Shown: positions 415 to 61,225, counted from the first letter of the stretch. The stretch is 64,000 bases of DNA from a virus (IMGVR_UViG_3300029288_000060:96001-160000), one strand, 5' to 3'. Numbers and translations are program-made. The notes: generated by a model from the letters alone, not told the origin.

Positions 415-672
415 TTATAAACCATATGTATTATGGATGAAAGATTGTTTTGCGATTTTTTCTCTATTTTTATAAGGAAGGTCTAAAAATTTTTTTAGAA
501 TGTTTTTATGTAGATTTCCATAATCATAAAGATAATGTAAGGAAACTACAACAACTTCATCTTTAGTAATATTTTTCCTTCCTGTAGCTTTTATTATGTC
601 TGCTCCAATTGTTTGCCAAACTACATTTAATGCTAGTTTGACTTTTTTCATTTCATCATTATTTAGAATCAT
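415..672 (-). CDS. hypothetical protein
   Basis: 85 aa ORF in operon context. Confidence 0.6.
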   Translation of the reverse strand: MILNNDEMKKVKLALNVVWQTIGADIIKATGRKNITKDEVVVVSLHYLYDYGNLHKNILKKFLDLPYKNREKIAKQSFIHNTYGL

Positions 673-2008
673 TATTATAACTCTCCTTCACTATGCTTAT
701 TAATTTTTCTTTTTCATTTAGATCTGGATTATCGATAACTAATTCTAACAAGAGATTTAAAATGTCACCAACTTCTTTTCCTGGAGTTAAACCAGTTATT
801 TCCATTATGTCATATCCATTTACTTTCAAATCAGAAAATTGATTGACAGGATCTTTTCTATTAGCTTGTGTTTTAAAATCTTTAACTAATTTATAAACGT
901 CTCTCAAAGTACGTTTATGTCTATTTTTTAAATTACCCATTTTATCACATAAGGAAACTCTTAAAAGACTTTGATAAGGGATTGAAAAATCATTTAATAA
1001 TTTTAATGTTCTTCTAATTCCTTTTGGTTGCAATCTTTCACTAGATATTCGCATATGTAATAATACTAAATTTGAAATTATGTTGACTTCTTCATTTGAA
1101 AATTTCAAATTCTCTAATTCTTTTTTGACAACTTTACACCCCGTTTTTTCATGCCCTTTAAACCAAATATTATCTGTTTTTGGATTTATTCTTGATGATA
1201 TAGGTTTTCCGACATCATGTAAATAAGCGGCTAATTTAACTAATGGAAATTTTGTTGATGCATGATCACCTGACATCATACAATGTTCAAAAACATCTTC
1301 TAAATGATATGGTCCACCTGGATGTAAGTAACTATTATTTAAACTTGGAAAAACATATTTTAAAACATCAATGTCATGTAGAGTTTTAAAGAATAATGAT
1401 GCATTTTTAATAGTTAATACTTTAAGAAGTTCTAATCTAATTCTTTCAGGTTTTACATAGAGAACGTATTTAGAATATTCAATTAAATCTTTTAAAGTAT
1501 CTTCTGAAAAAGAACCATTTATTTTTACTAAAAACCTACATGCTCTTATAATTCTGTTTGGATCTTCCCAAATTCTATCTTTACCATTACCATTAAATCT
1601 GATTATTTTCTTTTGAAGATCTTCTTGACCATTTACATAGTCAATAATCTTTTTTGTAATTGGGTCATAAAAAAGAGAATTCATAGTAAAGTCTCTTCTT
1701 TTTGCATCCTCTTCCGCAGATTTAGAAATATTTATATCAACATTTTTATCATTAAAACCTTTGTATGAATCTGTTCTGAATGTTGATACTTCAATATCGT
1801 TAATAAATGTGACTAGAAAACTTTTACCTAAAGTTTTTATTTTTTCATCTTTAAAAATTTTAATTAGTTCATCGGGAGTTGCAATTGTTGCTATGTCTAT
1901 GTCTTTATATGGAATATTAAGAATCATATCTCGAACACAACCACCAACAAAATAACTTTCAAATCCCAGATCTTGTAATTTAGTGATTATATCAAATGCA
2001 CTATTCAT
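659..2008 (-). CDS. cca: CCA-adding tRNA nucleotidyltransferase with HD domain
   Basis: VGGCVRD, DIDIAT, RRDFTMN and EDPNRIIRA class II NTase motifs; H...LHDVGK HD motif. Confidence 0.9.
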
Positions 2009-2285
2009 CTTCTTTTAAGCACCCACATGAAATTAATTGTCCGTGACATTTAGGACATTCTTCGACGTCACAACCTGGATGATGTATACCACCAATTTTT
2101 ACATTACAATCGTGACATCTTTTATTTTCTATAAAATCACCATTATCATATCTACCAAAATTTCCTCTGGTTTCGTAACCATATCTAATTGGATCCATTG
2201 CATAATTTGGAAAACATATTTTAATATCTTCTCTACATGAATCAACTTCTGACATATCTTTAGCACAACAATGACATATTGACAT
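2001..2285 (-). CDS. small Cys/His-rich zinc-binding protein
   Basis: CHCC, CHDC, HHPGCD, CPKC, SCGC. Confidence 0.7.
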
Positions 2286-2296
2286 TTTAATCTCCT

Positions 2297-2728
2297 TTAG
2301 AAAAGTTTATCATTTAATTTATCTCTTTTCTTCATAATTAATTTTCCTAAATGATTTAAACCTTTTCCTGTCTTTAAATTTACCCCCCAGTATTCATCTC
2401 CCCAATAGTTTCCTTCTTGAATATATTCTTCTCCTGTTTGTAAGAGCAAAGACTTAAAAGGTTCTTGGTCAAATTTTTGATTGATACATTCTTCCATAAC
2501 TTTTAATTTTCTCTTATTCCATTCTTTTAAATTGATTTCTAATTTTCTTGATTTTTTCTTAACAATTGATGCATCTTCATTTTGACATAATATTTTCCAG
2601 GACAATTCTTGGCTTTTTTCTGATTGATAAGCATGTTCAACACTTGGAAATATTAAACTATTTATTTTTATCAGACATAGATAAAAATTACTTAACCATG
2701 AATATTCATCTTTAAATTGTTTAATCAT
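2297..2728 (-). CDS. NADAR (YbiA-like) family hydrolase
   Basis: [41 protein letters not shown]. Confidence 0.9.
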
Positions 2729-2750
2729 GTTTTTCTCTCTTTTAAATGAT

Positions 2751-3797
2751 TTATATAAGAAATTGTTTAACTATTTTTCTACATAACTCATCAATTTTAA
2801 CTCTATCTGGAGAATTAGGTAATGAGGTTTTTTCATATAAATCATCAAATTTTTGATCAGAGTTTTCTAATATTTTACTTATTTCATCATATGTATATAC
2901 ACCATTTTTTATATCTAATAAAAATTTAGCATTTGGTGCCGGAAATGTAATTGTGCCAGTTGTTAATAATTCCTCGCCTTCTAAGACTAACCTACATAAA
3001 TGCAAGGCATGTTTTAAATCAAAACCATACTCATTTTCCATTTTTGCTCTTACAGGATTTCTATTCTTTTTCCAATTTTCATATTGATTATAATATCTTT
3101 GTGCTTGAGCATAAGCATTTTCTTTTTGTAAAATATCAATAAATTGTTTTGAAATTGGAATCATGGATTGAATAGCATTTATGTTTATTTGGACAAATTG
3201 TTTACATAGTTGTTTAAAATTATGTGTTTCTTCCATTTGTTCTAATTGTTCTTTTAACGGGTGAAATTCTTTTAAATTTTCAAGTTTTAATGCAAGTAAA
3301 ACATTAAATGCTCCAATTTGATCTTTAGTTAAATCTGATCTAAAAGGAGATAAACCAAAATCTTCTCTTGCAGGTTTTTTCTTTGGTGGGTTTAATAACC
3401 ATTTCCTATGAAGTTTTATTTTGTTGAATTGCATATGAGCATAACCAGAAAAAGTATGTTTTACTTTTTTAGAAATAAATAAATTTTTATTTTTATAAAT
3501 TTGTAACCATTCATCTGAATCTTGTAACCACTTGTTTTTTGGTATAAATAGTAACTCTATTATATTTGGATTATTATCCATGGCTAATTGCATAAATTTT
3601 CTTAGTTCAAAATATACTGTATCATTATTTTTATCTTCAAATTGTTCTGTTCTATATAAAAAACCATAGAAATACTTTTCACTTGGAATAAAAACACCCC
3701 TCTCATCAATATCAGAATCAGGGGAGTTCGTTCCATAAAGATGCGAACCTACGATTGCACGAAAAATCAATTTAAAGTTACCGGGAAGTGTTATCAA
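2751..3797 (-). CDS. Pol-beta superfamily nucleotidyltransferase (RlaP/NrdC.11-like)
   Basis: GSHLYGTNSPDSDIDERGVF, NPNIIELL, KHALHLCRL. Confidence 0.85.
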   Translation of the reverse strand: MITLPGNFKLIFRAIVGSHLYGTNSPDSDIDERGVFIPSEKYFYGFLYRTEQFEDKNNDTVYFELRKFMQLAMDNNPNIIELLFIPKNKWLQDSDEWLQIYKNKNLFISKKVKHTFSGYAHMQFNKIKLHRKWLLNPPKKKPAREDFGLSPFRSDLTKDQIGAFNVLLALKLENLKEFHPLKEQLEQMEETHNFKQLCKQFVQININAIQSMIPISKQFIDILQKENAYAQAQRYYNQYENWKKNRNPVRAKMENEYGFDLKHALHLCRLVLEGEELLTTGTITFPAPNAKFLLDIKNGVYTYDEISKILENSDQKFDDLYEKTSLPNSPDRVKIDELCRKIVKQFLI

Positions 3798-3829
3798 TTA
3801 TATTACCTCCAAAAAAATTTAACGAATAA

Positions 3830-3868
3830 CTTGAGGATATTAGCACTAAATTAACTAATATCCTCAAG
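3830..3868 (-). terminator. 14-bp inverted repeat (terminator or RNA-processing hairpin)
   Basis: cttgaggatattag / ctaatatcctcaag with an 11-nt loop, intergenic. Confidence 0.6.
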
Positions 3869-3884
3869 CTTTTATTACTCAGAT

Positions 3885-5771
3885 TTAACTTATTAATTTT
3901 ATTATTGTATCTTTTTCTAAGGATTCTGGAGATAAATCTATTTCACTTTCCTCCTTAGAATTAACAAATTCCGCTCCTGCTTCTGTAAGAACATCGTTTA
4001 AAGTTATGGTTCCAAAATAAAAATCAAAAAGATATTGTCTTACTTTTCTTGTTAATTCTGTTTCACTTGAACTTATTGCTCCAGTTAAATTGCTTTCTAT
4101 GTAGTAAAATTTACATATTTTTGGTGTTGTAACTAACAAACCAAGAATTTTTTGTTTTACATCTATTTTACTACTATCTGAAGCAACAATATCATTAGGA
4201 TTTATCATGTATCGCTTAGAAAAATTAGAAACACCTTTTCCAACAATTATTTTATAAGGAACATCTACATTCTCGCGATAGTTAAAATAGTTGACAAATA
4301 AAATTGCAAGGTTATTCCGATAAGATGACACATGAAACAATTCAGAAGCGCCATGAGGTTTTGGCGCAGTAGTTAAATCACCAGAAAACATAATTCTTTT
4401 TCCGTCATCTCTGTAAGCACCATCCCATCCAACCTTGTTTCCATTTAGATCAATTAAAGAAAGATCTAAGTCAATTCTTGTATCATCAACATTAAACCAA
4501 TTAATACCAAAGACCATACTTTGCGGAATTGTCACAGATGTTCCAACAGGAAAGTTTCCGATAAATTGCTTTTCAGTCGCAGGCAAGGTATATGTTATAC
4601 CTTCTGGAATATAAATCTTCTTCCCAGATACTTTTTCTTTTAAATCATCTGATATAGATTTCAGGATGATATTTAAAGGTTGCATATACAATTCTGCTGG
4701 TTGTTTATCAAAATCAGTTATGAATGATTTCCCATTTCTGATTCTATACATAATGTTATCTGGACTATATAATCTAAACTTTAAAGCATAAGCTAGTCTT
4801 ACTTTCCTAAAAATGTTTGTGTTTTTTAATTCTCTTTTAAGTTTAGTTATATCTAAACTTTTCTTTTTAATATTATTAGTAACATTATTTAGGAAATCTT
4901 CAGGCATAGGTTTATGGTGAGTAACTGCAAGTCTTCTGATCTTATTGGTTATTTTTCTCATTTCTGAATTTGTTCTAAACGCCAAAAATAAGGGTTTGAA
5001 ACGGTAATAAATTGAAGCAAGATTTTCCAATCCATACTTGTCTGAATATTGCTTAAACAATTTTGAAATTCTAATATTTCTTTTTGATTTAATTTCTTCA
5101 ATTGTTTTTTTATCTTTAATTAACAACGTTTTCTCAGTAGCTTTATAGATAGCAAATCTTAAGAATTCGGTTGGATTTTTTGGAATTTGACCCAAATAAT
5201 CATACAAAATTACCCGAATTTCTTTATTTTTAATTTCTGATAATTCTTCTTCATTAATACCAACATAGGTTATAACTTCAACCATATCATTTATGGTATC
5301 CTCTGATAAAGCAATTCCAGAATTTAGAACAACTTGAACTTTTTCTTTTAATTCTTCTTTGGTATATCCTTTTATAACTACCAAAGGTATTTCTTTAATT
5401 TTTATTTTTGGAATTTTTAATCTTTCAGTTGGTATATAAACCAAATTGTTATCATAAATACCAGCAGCTTCAAAACCATATGTGGTTATGTAATGAATTA
5501 TTTGTTGGCATATCAGATATTCCATATCAGCATCTCTGATTATTTTCCATGATTTATGAAAAGTATTGTTCATGACATTAGCATCTAAACCAATACTTTT
5601 TTTAACTATATCAATTAATACTTTTAATTCTTCATCTAAATAGTTAAAAACAACTTCTGGTGAAAAAATAAACCCATATTGAATTGTTTTTGAAACTAAT
5701 TCCTTTGATGGGTTCTTTTTTCCTATTTTCGTAATGGGTACTGCTTTAAACAAATTCACAAAACTCTTCAT
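3885..5771 (-). CDS. alpha-helical (putative ROT/TROVE-like) protein with C-terminal TerD-like domain
   Basis: C-terminal WFNVDDTRIDLDLS and FSGDLTTAP..GASE are TerD-type motifs; long helical, Lys-rich N-terminal part containing NPTEFLR; the ROT-like assignment is inferred from architecture. Confidence 0.6.
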   Translation of the reverse strand: MKSFVNLFKAVPITKIGKKNPSKELVSKTIQYGFIFSPEVVFNYLDEELKVLIDIVKKSIGLDANVMNNTFHKSWKIIRDADMEYLICQQIIHYITTYGFEAAGIYDNNLVYIPTERLKIPKIKIKEIPLVVIKGYTKEELKEKVQVVLNSGIALSEDTINDMVEVITYVGINEEELSEIKNKEIRVILYDYLGQIPKNPTEFLRFAIYKATEKTLLIKDKKTIEEIKSKRNIRISKLFKQYSDKYGLENLASIYYRFKPLFLAFRTNSEMRKITNKIRRLAVTHHKPMPEDFLNNVTNNIKKKSLDITKLKRELKNTNIFRKVRLAYALKFRLYSPDNIMYRIRNGKSFITDFDKQPAELYMQPLNIILKSISDDLKEKVSGKKIYIPEGITYTLPATEKQFIGNFPVGTSVTIPQSMVFGINWFNVDDTRIDLDLSLIDLNGNKVGWDGAYRDDGKRIMFSGDLTTAPKPHGASELFHVSSYRNNLAILFVNYFNYRENVDVPYKIIVGKGVSNFSKRYMINPNDIVASDSSKIDVKQKILGLLVTTPKICKFYYIESNLTGAISSSETELTRKVRQYLFDFYFGTITLNDVLTEAGAEFVNSKEESEIDLSPESLEKDTIIKLIS

Positions 5772-5787
5772 GCAATTCTCCTTTTTA

Positions 5788-6107
5788 AAGCGGTTAGTAT
5801 TTTTTAAATTTTAAATAGGAACTAACTATGCTTCAAAAACATAAAACAAGGCGGAGAGTATATTAATCTAAAAGGATTTTTGTATAGGAACTCTCATTTG
5901 CCTTTTTTACAAAGTATAAGCGGGAAGTAGATAAATTATCCAAAATTTTAATAGGAACTTCCTATGCTTATTATAATAGCGAGTGGTATTTATAATCTTA
6001 GCAATTATATTTTTTAGGAACCACTTATGCTATACATTTTTAAAAAATAAAGCGGAGAGTATATTTATCGCAACGATTTTTTGTATAGGAACTCTCATTT
6101 GCTTTAT
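5788..6107 (-). ncRNA. tandem array of five structured RNA units (46-61 nt)
   Basis: Units at 5788-5833, 5848-5904, 5916-5971, 5976-6033 and 6047-6107; minus-strand consensus stem-GC-(AUA/AAAU)-NNNNGU-UCCUA-variable-U-ACNNNN-C-GC-stem with compensatory changes. Confidence 0.85.
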
Positions 6108-6113
6108 CTTTAA

Positions 6114-6121
6114 TTTGTTCT
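6114..6121 (-). promoter_or_regulatory. AGAACAAA candidate phage promoter element directly upstream of the RNA array
   Basis: tttgttct on +, 6 nt from the array 5' end; the same motif precedes six other genes. Confidence 0.5.
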
Positions 6122-6517: not shown

Positions 6518-6525
6518 AGAACAAA
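6518..6525 (+). promoter_or_regulatory. AGAACAAA candidate phage promoter element
   Basis: Upstream of the GGAGG SD and ATG 6546, at the start of the plus-strand module. Confidence 0.5.
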
Positions 6526-6545: not shown

Positions 6546-7049
6546 ATGATTATTGAAAGATATCTAAATCAATTAAATAAAGAAGATGCTGGAGGATTTG
6601 CAATAGATTCTTTCCCGACTAAAGCTAAATCAAAACCTCTAATTATGTCTTATGAAAAATCAATAGTTGAAGAAGCGTATGATTTAAATACAAAAAGAAT
6701 TATGATTGATTTAGATGGCACTATACACAAATATTCAGAAGGATGGAAGGATGGTACTCTATATGATGAACCTTTTGATGGAGCTAAACAAATTATTAAT
6801 CAATTAAAAAAAGATGGTTTTGAAATAGGTATTTTTACAGCAAGGTTAAGTAAAGAAACCAATGTAGACATTACCAAACAAAAATTAATGATTGAAGAAT
6901 GGCTAACACAGAATGGGATAGAAATAGATTTTATTACTTCTGAAAAATTACCAGCTGAAGTATATGTAGATGACAGAGGTTTACATTTTGAAGGTCAATG
7001 GGATAAAGAATTATATAATGAAATTAAAAATAGAATTGGGGTGAAATAG
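6546..7049 (+). CDS. HAD-superfamily phosphatase
   Basis: IDLDGTI (DxD), FTAR, KLPAEVYVDDR. Confidence 0.85.
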   Translation: MIIERYLNQLNKEDAGGFAIDSFPTKAKSKPLIMSYEKSIVEEAYDLNTKRIMIDLDGTIHKYSEGWKDGTLYDEPFDGAKQIINQLKKDGFEIGIFTARLSKETNVDITKQKLMIEEWLTQNGIEIDFITSEKLPAEVYVDDRGLHFEGQWDKELYNEIKNRIGVK

Positions 7050-7057
7050 AGAACAAA
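7050..7057 (+). promoter_or_regulatory. AGAACAAA candidate phage promoter element
   Basis: Immediately after the 7049 stop, upstream of the endonuclease gene. Confidence 0.4.
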
Positions 7058-7094
7058 TATTAAATGGTTGAGTGGGAAGGAGCTTTTTATTAAT

Positions 7095-8282
7095 ATGGTG
7101 ATTGTTAAAGAAATTCTAAATAAAAATGAAAATTTAATATGTGATTATGGCTGTGGAAAGAAAGCAAATTTTAGATTTTTAAATGGAAAAGTTTGTTGTG
7201 AAAGTAATTATGGTAAATGTGAAGGAGTTAGACAAAAAAATAGAGAAACTCAAATTGGAAGAAATAGACCAGAATATCAAATTATAAAAATTAAAAACGC
7301 CGTAATAGAAAGAATGAAAAATGAAAGTAAGGAAGAAAAGAAAAAATATGGAAGTAAAAAAAGAAGCATAGAAACTGTTTTAAAATTATGTCCAAATTTT
7401 TTAGAATATGAAGAAATTAGATATAATCCAGGTAATAAAGATGAATTACAAGTAAGATGTAAAAATAAAAATTGTGTACATAGTAAAGAAAATGATGGTT
7501 GGTATACTCCGAATCCTAGAACAATAGAACATAGAATTTCATGTTTAAAAGATGGAAAAATGCATAATGGACATTTTTATTGCTCAAAAGAATGCAGAAT
7601 CACAGATGCAGATCAAATTAGTTATTTTTCTGAGTTAAGATTAAATTATTATAAAAATTTAGATAAAGAAGAACATAATAAATTATATCTTTATCCACGA
7701 AGAATTACAATAGAACAAATTAATAAAAGATATCCAAATTTCTCAAGTATTGAAGAAATAAGGTATCATCCAGGAAAAGAAGTAAATAAAATTATTCAAG
7801 GACATTGTATTAATCCAAATTGTCCTAACAGCAAAGAAAAAGGTGGATGGTTTGATTTAGATCGAAGACAATTAGAAAGTAGGATAATGGCTTTAGAAAA
7901 CTCAAAGTGTAAAGCTAAATTATATTTCTTTTGTAGTAGAGATTGTAAAATTACAAGTGGATTATTTAGCAGAAAACCAAATTCTTTACAAAATGATTTA
8001 GATTTTATAAAATACTCAAAAGAAGTTTGGAAATATACATATTATTCAGTTAAAGATAACAATCATCAAATAAAAAATATAGATTTAAGAAGTAAAAATT
8101 TTCATTTAGATCATAGATATTCTATAACAGAAGGTTTTAAAAATGGTGTTGATCCAAAAATAATTGCGCATTGGAAAAATTTAGAAATCTTAACAAGATT
8201 TAAAAACATTTCAAAACATAAAAAATGTTCAATTAGTTTGGAAACATTACTAACAGAAATAAAAAAAATTGAAATAACATGA
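7095..8282 (+). CDS. free-standing HNH-type homing endonuclease with Cys-rich repeats
   Basis: C-terminal FHLDHRYS...HWKNLEIL...NISK HNH-like motif; N-terminal CDYGCG..GKVCC; duplicated EEIRY-P..C-N-C..SKE..GW..FxCS domain; ATG 7095 follows an AAGGAG SD (track start 7068). Confidence 0.7.
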   Translation: MVIVKEILNKNENLICDYGCGKKANFRFLNGKVCCESNYGKCEGVRQKNRETQIGRNRPEYQIIKIKNAVIERMKNESKEEKKKYGSKKRSIETVLKLCPNFLEYEEIRYNPGNKDELQVRCKNKNCVHSKENDGWYTPNPRTIEHRISCLKDGKMHNGHFYCSKECRITDADQISYFSELRLNYYKNLDKEEHNKLYLYPRRITIEQINKRYPNFSSIEEIRYHPGKEVNKIIQGHCINPNCPNSKEKGGWFDLDRRQLESRIMALENSKCKAKLYFFCSRDCKITSGLFSRKPNSLQNDLDFIKYSKEVWKYTYYSVKDNNHQIKNIDLRSKNFHLDHRYSITEGFKNGVDPKIIAHWKNLEILTRFKNISKHKKCSISLETLLTEIKKIEIT

Positions 8283-23492: not shown

Positions 23493-23500
23493 TTTGTTCT
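23493..23500 (-). promoter_or_regulatory. AGAACAAA candidate phage promoter element
   Basis: Intergenic, oriented toward ATG 23458. Confidence 0.5.
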
Positions 23501-26792: not shown

Positions 26793-26800
26793 TTTGTTCT
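26793..26800 (-). promoter_or_regulatory. AGAACAAA candidate phage promoter element
   Basis: Between a terminator-like hairpin and the morphogenesis gene block. Confidence 0.5.
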
Positions 26801-41762: not shown

Positions 41763-41770
41763 TTTGTTCT
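41763..41770 (-). promoter_or_regulatory. AGAACAAA candidate phage promoter element
   Basis: Directly upstream of the AGGAGG SD of gene 41745. Confidence 0.5.
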
Positions 41771-61217: not shown

Positions 61218-61225
61218 TTTGTTCT
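61218..61225 (-). promoter_or_regulatory. AGAACAAA candidate phage promoter element
   Basis: Upstream of the AAGGAG SD of gene 61199. Confidence 0.5.

Follow-up and report, generated by a model that had tools for sequence, protein, structure and literature searches.

A covarying hairpin array beside a helical-TerD protein gene of a jumbo phage: a candidate ribonucleoprotein system resembling Ro60 and its Y RNAs

A short intergenic array in the genome of a jumbo phage consists of five copies of an uncatalogued structured RNA, which is probably the cognate partner of the adjacently encoded protein of 628 amino acids, a helical domain joined to a TerD fold (we put the probability of this reading at about 0.6). 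The pair is best read, by comparison with described systems, as a candidate Ro60/Y-RNA-like ribonucleoprotein that differs from the Ro60 system in its protein family and in its RNA binding motif. The array occupies positions 5785-6107 on the minus strand of the window, a stretch of 64,000 nucleotides that represents bases 96001-160000 of a 268.8-kb IMG/VR virus record. The source phage has a GC content of 27%, and the record is estimated to be 74% complete. The array lies in a 775-nt divergent intergenic region that separates a minus-strand operon, headed by the 628-aa gene, from a plus-strand HAD-like gene. The features of the array and of the operon are listed in Table 1.

Table 1. Features of the hairpin array and of the neighboring minus-strand genes, in window coordinates. 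CM R1, covariance model built from the five units.
Feature	Position	Strand	Remarks
Candidate phage promoter element, AGAACAAA octamer	6114..6121	-	6 nt before unit 1
Unit 1	6047..6107	-	CM R1 75.1 bits; inner stem GAGAGU/ACUCUC
Unit 2	5974..6035	-	CM R1 64.4 bits; inner stem AGUGGU/ACCACU
Unit 3	5915..5972	-	CM R1 70.8 bits; inner stem GGAAGU/ACUUCC
Unit 4	5846..5906	-	CM R1 73.4 bits; inner stem GAGAGU/ACUCUC
Unit 5	5785..5836	-	CM R1 61.1 bits; inner stem GUUAGU/ACUAAC; shortest apex
Shine-Dalgarno AGGAG of the 628-aa gene	5778..5782	-	read from sequence
P0001, 628 aa	3885..5771	-	ORF; helical N-terminal domain and TerD-fold C-terminus
TerD-fold domain of P0001 (aa 415-580)	4032..4529	-	
RlaP-family nucleotidyltransferase (RNA repair)	2751..3797	-	next downstream of the P0001 gene; PF10127, E 1.3e-25; phrog_388
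NADAR-domain protein	2297..2728	-	PF08719, E 2e-20
94-aa Cys-rich protein	2001..2285	-	weak zinc-finger match PF20173, E 0.005, under the family cut-off
CCA-adding tRNA nucleotidyltransferase with HD domain	659..2008	-	PF01743, PF12627, PF01966, PF13735

All five units share a common plan. An outer stem of 4-7 bp, the last pairs of which are G-C and C-G, leads into an internal loop with AUA or AAAU on the 5' side (motif CANA) facing one C. This loop is followed by an inner stem of 6 bp that ends in G-C and U-A pairs, then by UCCUA and an AU-rich remainder, which together with UCCUA make up an apex of 22-32 nt. Unit 1, for example, has the outer stem AUAAAGC/GCUUUAU, an AAAU loop facing C, UCCUA and an apex of 30 nt. 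Invariant in all five units are UCCUA, the lone 3' C and the closing G-C and C-G pairs. Successive units start 72, 63, 66 and 70 nt apart, and units 1 and 4, which are 85% identical, form the direct repeat D1. A first-pass annotation of this DNA had proposed that five minus-strand units fold identically around the inner stems given in Table 1, and the sequence, the alignment and the pair counts bore this out. The same annotation held that structure is conserved over sequence, as was found: 93.8% of cells within the five units are paired, with double changes at 9 of 13 pairs, and sliding the 3' partner by 1-3 columns as a control lowered pairing to 31-52%. The predicted fold of a 354-nt region comprised the five hairpins, with z = -3.9. 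A search of the window region with Rfam 15 at E <= 10 returned no match for the units, in agreement with the earlier claim that they belong to no known Rfam family.

The array ends 15-16 nt before the ATG (5771) of the 628-aa gene, which forms an operon together with the genes for RlaP, NADAR and the CCA-adding enzyme. NCBIfam models for CCA tRNA nucleotidyltransferases matched the last of these with scores under their cut-offs. On the other side, the divergent 167-aa gene at 6546-7049 (+) is HAD-like, with weak likeness to the polynucleotide kinase/phosphatase family phrog_415; judged from its sequence, it may encode an RNA end-healing phosphatase of the same repair set. No tRNA genes were found in the 64-kb window. 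Elsewhere in the phage record, ARAGORN reported a tRNA with anticodon CTA (G000:C1:263759-263829), a TAG suppressor labelled tRNA-Pyl, a hint that TAG is read through or recoded in part of the phage; the other three tRNAs of the phage are Gln-CTG, Leu-TAA and Pro-TGG.

The octamer AGAACAAA just upstream of the array occurs 17 times in the window against 7.4 expected (about two-fold), and none of 100 shuffles reached 17 copies. It recurs 10-25 nt before the Shine-Dalgarno sequence and ATG of several other genes and frequently takes the extended form T-AGAACAAA-T/A. Further sites are at 6518-6525(+), 7050-7057(+), 61218-61225(-), 41763-41770(-), 26793-26800(-) and 23493-23500(-). A sigma-70 scan found nothing at the site before unit 1. 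Because the octamer is enriched and recurs before gene starts, a putative phage-specific promoter, or else a leader motif, is plausible from sequence.

The linkage between the RNA and the protein gene was assessed with covariance model R1. In the first four full viral loci, whose proteins are 46-54% identical to P0001, 2-3 units lie within 350 nt upstream of the start. A further 77 IMG/VR loci (identity 38-66%; several are near-duplicates) yielded 206 R1 matches at E < 0.1, distributed over 75 of the 77 loci and all on the strand of the gene (206/206, with 0 on the opposite strand); the two loci lacking a match have less than 70 nt of upstream sequence. All 156 matches to a strict regular expression were likewise on the gene strand (0 on the opposite strand). 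Among 47 loci from prokaryotic genomes (identity 33-54%), 44 contained a total of 84 matches, every one on the strand of the gene and all but one directly upstream of it, and two of the three match-less loci have no upstream DNA. Units were also found beside the gene in three cultured phages, cyanophages S-CRM01 and S-CBWM1 and gut phage Phass-1, at protein identities of 28-31%. The gene pair ranges over phages, Bacteroidota, Planctomycetota, Chloroflexota, Bacillota and archaeal MAGs, with two to seven units per locus. The association of structured RNAs with the protein family, as first suggested from the one array, therefore held when homologous loci were scanned: similar arrays are present and always on the gene's strand. 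No conserved protein-coding partner appeared in more than 10 of 70 non-redundant viral loci, the commonest coding neighbors (DNA methylase, Pol A, RecA, gp32 and others) each being found in at most 10, and the RNA is therefore the one constant companion of the gene.

The position of the units bears on whether they act in cis. Usually the array is directly upstream on the same strand, its last unit 13-40 nt from the start codon, and in the source phage no intrinsic terminator was found by a terminator scan between the array and the 628-aa gene; a pure cis leader would look alike. The hairpins could then be operators to which the protein or another factor binds, repressing or stabilizing its own message, and no free small RNA would be made. 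The ThrRS operator is a precedent for tRNA-like operators located in leaders. The units do not, however, keep to a fixed place in the 5' UTR. They lie downstream of the gene in several loci (L086/L095, L045, L048, L024, L054, L084, L123 and S-CRM01) and 1.3-2.5 kb away, among tRNA genes or by a tmRNA gene, in others (S-CBWM1, L029, L051 and Phass-1). In L051 the units are 1.3-1.5 kb upstream of the gene, and in S-CBWM1 the array sits between tRNA-Pro and tRNA-Glu, 2.5 kb from the gene. The autoregulatory reading is weakened because arrays occur downstream of, or kilobases from, the gene, and the two to seven units per locus and the YrlA-like apices of some relatives (see below) fit trans-acting RNAs better. 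We regard exclusively cis-acting operators, the chief alternative to our reading, as unlikely. The two roles are compatible and could coexist, and the units nearest the start codon may also exert feedback on translation of the gene.

Two of these phages provided further observations. In Phass-1 (L098, code-15 clade) four units at 7013-7416, 1.3 kb downstream of the TerD-family gene, directly precede the phage tmRNA (7488-7926, 77.9 bits). In S-CRM01 an annotated 48-aa hypothetical CDS, g173 (L096 3641-3787, minus), overlaps two opposite-strand units (3596-3658 and 3664-3729) and is probably not a real gene.

Conservation across the relatives is concentrated in the base of the hairpin. In an alignment of 147 R1 matches the inner helix is paired in 99.5% of cells, compensatory double changes occur at all 13 pairs, and the covariation score is 0.646 versus 0.10-0.19 in slid controls; the alignment was fitted to the model, which favors structure, but the score exceeds that of the controls by a very wide margin. 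Little or no variation was seen at the unpaired positions, namely C-A-N-A, UCCU(A), the bulged C and the U that immediately precedes the 3' strand of the inner stem, and this conservation holds in phages, bacteria and archaea whose genomes range from about 20% to 60% GC. Such a set of conserved unpaired bases fits a protein-recognition surface, as far as can be judged from sequence. It also bears on the suggestion that the units are generic repeats, such as terminators, RNase processing or stability hairpins or a mobile palindrome, with no specific partner. Tandem intergenic hairpins, some of them followed by U-runs, would look much like this. Invariant unpaired bases over so wide a range of genomes and base composition argue against it, as do the negative terminator scan in the source phage, the strict strand bias of the viral matches and the finding that only these five copies exist in the 268.8-kb record, all at the 628-aa gene. 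Generic repeats are therefore considered extremely improbable.

An anti-Shine-Dalgarno role of UCCUA was considered separately and rejected. The motif is equally conserved in Chryseobacterium, where no Shine-Dalgarno sequence precedes the ATG, and it is kept in units far from any start codon.

The conserved part of the units is the basal stem with its loops and not the apex. Among relatives the apex has a median length of 29 nt and most are short. The apex as a consistent hairpin was rejected, since about half of the units lack a stable one (an apical hairpin is present in 66 of 138 units, with a median z-score of 0). A fixed scaffold carrying a variable apex resembles the architecture of guide RNAs, and the first-pass annotation had entertained a guide function in which the variable loops would pair with nucleic-acid targets. 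This idea did not survive comparison with the phage genome, where the longest exact matches of the loops elsewhere were 13-15 nt against a mean of 12.8-14.0 for shuffled loops, no better than chance. The loops are also short and AU-rich, and in some relatives they are replaced by folded tRNA-like domains. A guide role is accordingly rated as very improbable.

The surroundings of the gene point to tRNA metabolism and RNA repair, and the proposal of an RNA-related setting was supported by the RlaP and CCA-adding enzymes here, by RtcB in Chryseobacterium and by tRNA genes. Of 60 viral loci, 22 have tRNA genes at a distance of up to 5 kb, in every case on the strand of the gene; 11 of the 22 have 5-26 tRNAs, often abutting the array. 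In S-CRM01 and S-CBWM1 the gene is inside the phage tRNA cluster. Over the loci RlaP is a neighbor in 9 and the CCA enzyme in 7, and RtcB is directly upstream in about 48 Chryseobacterium chromosomes and 2 viral loci. RNA-repair neighbors are found in a minority of the viral loci only. The order in Chryseobacterium is RtcB, a terminator-like hairpin, three units and the gene, amid ordinary chromosomal genes.

This context would also suit tRNA-related decoys or substrates, minihelix-like RNAs acted upon by tRNA-directed enzymes (host anticodon nucleases, RNase P/Z, the CCA enzyme or RtcB), in which case the neighboring protein would not be their binding partner. Units embedded in same-strand tRNA gene arrays, tRNA-like apices in some units and the CCA enzyme, RlaP and RtcB as neighbors are all consistent with such a role. 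The constant linkage, however, is with the TerD-family gene and not with tRNAs or any one enzyme, and it is the basal stem and loops that are conserved. The apex hairpin loops of the window units are 3, 6 and 7 nt and without U33, as read from the sequence, and so are not anticodon-loop-like, and a stable hairpin is missing from half of all apices. Decoys or substrates are thus judged quite improbable, and a cognate RNA of the TerD-family protein is preferred.

Some tRNA features near the units are unusual. At locus L088 ARAGORN reported a tRNA with a four-base anticodon (ctat) at 4654-4729, about 90 nt upstream of two gene-proximal units, with a third unit upstream of the tRNA; it is possible that this is a frameshift or stop-suppressor tRNA. 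Downstream of the TerD-family gene of S-CBWM1, at a distance of about 350 nt, are two features annotated as tRNA-pseudo (L097 6030-6206), which Rfam scores as ordinary tRNAs (53.7 and 45.5 bits).

A minority of the relatives carry an apex in which T-arm, acceptor-like hairpin and D-arm follow one another in this permuted order. These tRNA-like apices (L004/L006, L019, L025, S-CRM01 and L116, from Ktedonobacter) fold as T-arm, hairpin and D-arm and matched the Rfam YrlA family (RF02553) at E 4e-8 to 1e-3 and 34-52 bits, below its gathering threshold of 69 bits. In seven related loci searched with Rfam, the matches were confined to tRNA and to YrlA below threshold. The earlier description of the RNAs as Y-RNA-like is therefore partly upheld: a YrlA-type tRNA-like module is found in some relatives and is absent from the five window units. 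Other traits of YrlA were not seen. Near its base YrlA has the conserved motif GNCGAA(N)G / GGUCCGA, to which Ro binds (PMC4201824); this is not found in the units, which carry GU-UCCUA and a CANA loop facing one C. Proximity of a few kb to a Ro60/TROVE gene is likewise missing, the neighbor here being a TerD-family gene; no TROVE match was found in the source phage record, nor a TROVE protein in five records of related phages that carry the tRNA-like apices, which include contigs estimated to be 99% and 91% complete and the complete S-CRM01. The sub-threshold YrlA match of S-CRM01 (L096) is at 3472-3586. In Ktedonobacter racemifer DSM 44963 (L116) the YrlA-like tRNA-like segment is at 2300-2366, and the protein match at 2501-5322 spans 2.8 kb with 23 stops in straight translation, so that the gene is interrupted or frameshifted.

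One chromosome holds both kinds of RNA. In Bythopirellula sp. (L184, G007:C1:4914000-4932000) a TerD-family gene, immediately preceded by a UCCUA unit, is 1.8 kb from a genuine Ro60 gene (TROVE and vWA_Ro60) on the other strand, beside which there are two YrlA matches. Both RNA-protein pairs and about 35 tRNA genes on one strand fall within 12 kb. The island also contains a PcfJ-like gene. R1 run without filters gave matches solely next to the TerD-family gene; each RNA type therefore lies beside its own protein gene.

The protein itself belongs to a large family that is poorly covered by existing profiles. P0001 received no assignment from Pfam, PHROG or PDB-sequence profiles, and its one match in NCBIfam was weak, to a TerD-like region (NF041916, E 7.6e-7). 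Among the best 25 of 42 weak Pfam families for 45 family members, no family was common to more than 4 of the 45, and neither TROVE nor TerD was present. The family includes at least 1422 representatives of 50%-identity clusters at E <= 1e-3, and nearly all members are about 620-660 aa long. No longer fused forms of the protein were found, which is weak evidence. The AlphaFold2 model of P0001 is a confident single body (pLDDT 90.2, pTM 0.86). Its N-terminal domain (aa 1-390) is mostly helical and has no assigned family, and a large number of its Lys, Arg, His and aromatic positions are invariant. In the predicted structure the C-terminal 165 residues form a TerD beta-sandwich.

The protein had first been described as a ROT/TROVE-like-TerD fusion, and of this the TerD part stood and the TROVE part did not. 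Foldseek of the whole model against the PDB returned only TerD, apart from spurious long toxin alignments (TM-score ~0.1), and the TerD fold of the C-terminus was confirmed in this way; no vWA domain with MIDAS was found in that position. The N-terminal model gave nothing under E 0.03 against the PDB. The matches in BFVD were solely phage proteins of the same architecture, from Campylobacter virus IBB35, Lactobacillus phage LpeD and Siphoviridae ctFn287. Ro60 was not found by Foldseek in either database, and hhalign of P0001-family alignments A2 and A3 with 23 genuine Ro60 proteins gave a probability of 0.1-0.3%. The predicted N-terminal domain bears at most a weak resemblance to the HEAT-repeat ring fold of Ro60. 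Given no detectable Ro60 homology and this weak resemblance of fold, the analogy to Ro therefore rests on the RNA features and the gene context. The link between TROVE-like and TerD architectures and RNA processing that had been cited as established was not found in the literature searched.

From these observations we infer a two-part RNA and a mechanism. The outer stem, the CANA/C loop, the 6-bp stem ending in G-U, UCCUA-W-W-A-A and the U before the 3' strand would form a fixed recognition module, and the second part would be a free apex, short and AU-rich here and sometimes a permuted tRNA-like domain in relatives, as in YrlA. The array would be co-transcribed with the gene, the AGAACAAA element being the probable promoter in this phage, and its units would be released as small RNAs of about 50-60 nt that bind the protein through the fixed module (CANA/C and GU-UCCUA). 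The resulting particle might serve as a scaffold or gate for tRNA/RNA repair and quality control during infection, in the company of RlaP, NADAR and the CCA enzyme in this phage and of RtcB or tRNA arrays elsewhere. Such a role would parallel that of Ro60 with Y RNAs in the rsr-yrlBA-rtcBA operon. A wider proposal, held tentatively and at slightly less than even odds, is that TerD-capped proteins with UCCUA-stem RNAs constitute a distinct class of ribonucleoprotein, non-homologous to Ro60/TROVE, that converged on the Ro60-Y RNA system or exchanged RNA modules with it. Its role in phages, bacteria and archaea would be to repair tRNAs and other RNAs or to control their quality, and in phages it would probably counter host tRNA-targeting defences.

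Phage and bacterial Ro60-Y RNA systems, and jumbo-phage RNA repair with ROT/TROVE proteins, are already known. The protein family, the RNA motif and their pairing had no description in Rfam, Pfam, PHROGs or the literature searched, the scope of which leaves out Burroughs and Aravind 2016. A protein family of at least 1422 clusters with no Pfam or PHROG entry and a very strongly covarying RNA with no Rfam entry form a near-obligate pair. The pair occupies the niche of Ro60 and Y RNA, by RtcB, RlaP, CCA enzymes and tRNA arrays, and should the protein have no true relationship with Ro60, the pair would be a separate ribonucleoprotein class. The function of Y-RNA-type particles in RNA repair can thereby be studied in a second system, independent of the first. 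The pair also suggests that different, putatively protein-binding stems can exchange tRNA-like modules as cargo. For phage biology the pair points to an unexplored component of tRNA maintenance in infection, and experimentally tractable hosts exist in Chryseobacterium isolates and cyanophage S-CRM01.

Several known systems offer comparisons. SPFH/Band-7 proteins reportedly occur with tRNA-like RNA in RNA-repair systems (Burroughs and Aravind 2016). That proposal shares with the present one a scaffold protein and a cognate non-coding RNA amid RNA-repair genes, and differs in both the protein fold and the RNA. The C-terminal beta-sandwich fold of P0001 is like that of TerD from ter operons (PDB 2KXT, 2QZ7, 3IBZ). 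Unlike ter-operon TerD, P0001 has no Pfam TerD match and carries a fused helical domain of 390 aa, and its context is tRNA and RNA repair instead of a ter operon.

Among phages, ROT/TROVE proteins, RlaP and CCA enzymes are known in jumbo-phage RNA repair, and Ro60 occurs in mycobacteriophages, CcrColossus and Bacillus phage G. Thermus phage phiLo encodes a Ro60 with the Y-RNA-like Yrl1 and Yrl2 (PMC12135203; PDB 9L5Y). Like phiLo Ro60, P0001 is a phage-encoded protein, here a putative RNA-binding one, with candidate cognate small RNAs just upstream.

The closest parallel is with bacterial Ro60. In the rsr-yrlBA-rtcBA RNA-repair operon Ro60 (Rsr) is encoded with YrlA and YrlB (PMC4201824, PMC7790460), and yrlBA is co-transcribed and processed to small RNAs (PMC7790460, PMC4201824). 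In both systems structured RNAs, in one or several copies, adjoin the gene of a helical protein of about 500-600 aa with a second domain, and both kinds of locus are linked with RtcB and other RNA-repair genes. Like Y RNAs, the units combine a basal stem bearing a conserved, partly unpaired motif with a variable module, which in some cases is a permuted tRNA-like domain. The differences lie in the components. Unlike Ro60, P0001 has no similarity to TROVE profiles and is capped by a TerD fold in place of vWA/MIDAS. In place of the GNCGAA of YrlA the motif here is CANA/C and UCCUA, and most units here are 50-60 nt, without the tRNA-like part and with a sub-threshold score or none in Rfam. In Bythopirellula the Ro60-YrlA system and the TerD-protein-UCCUA system stand side by side, each with its own RNA.
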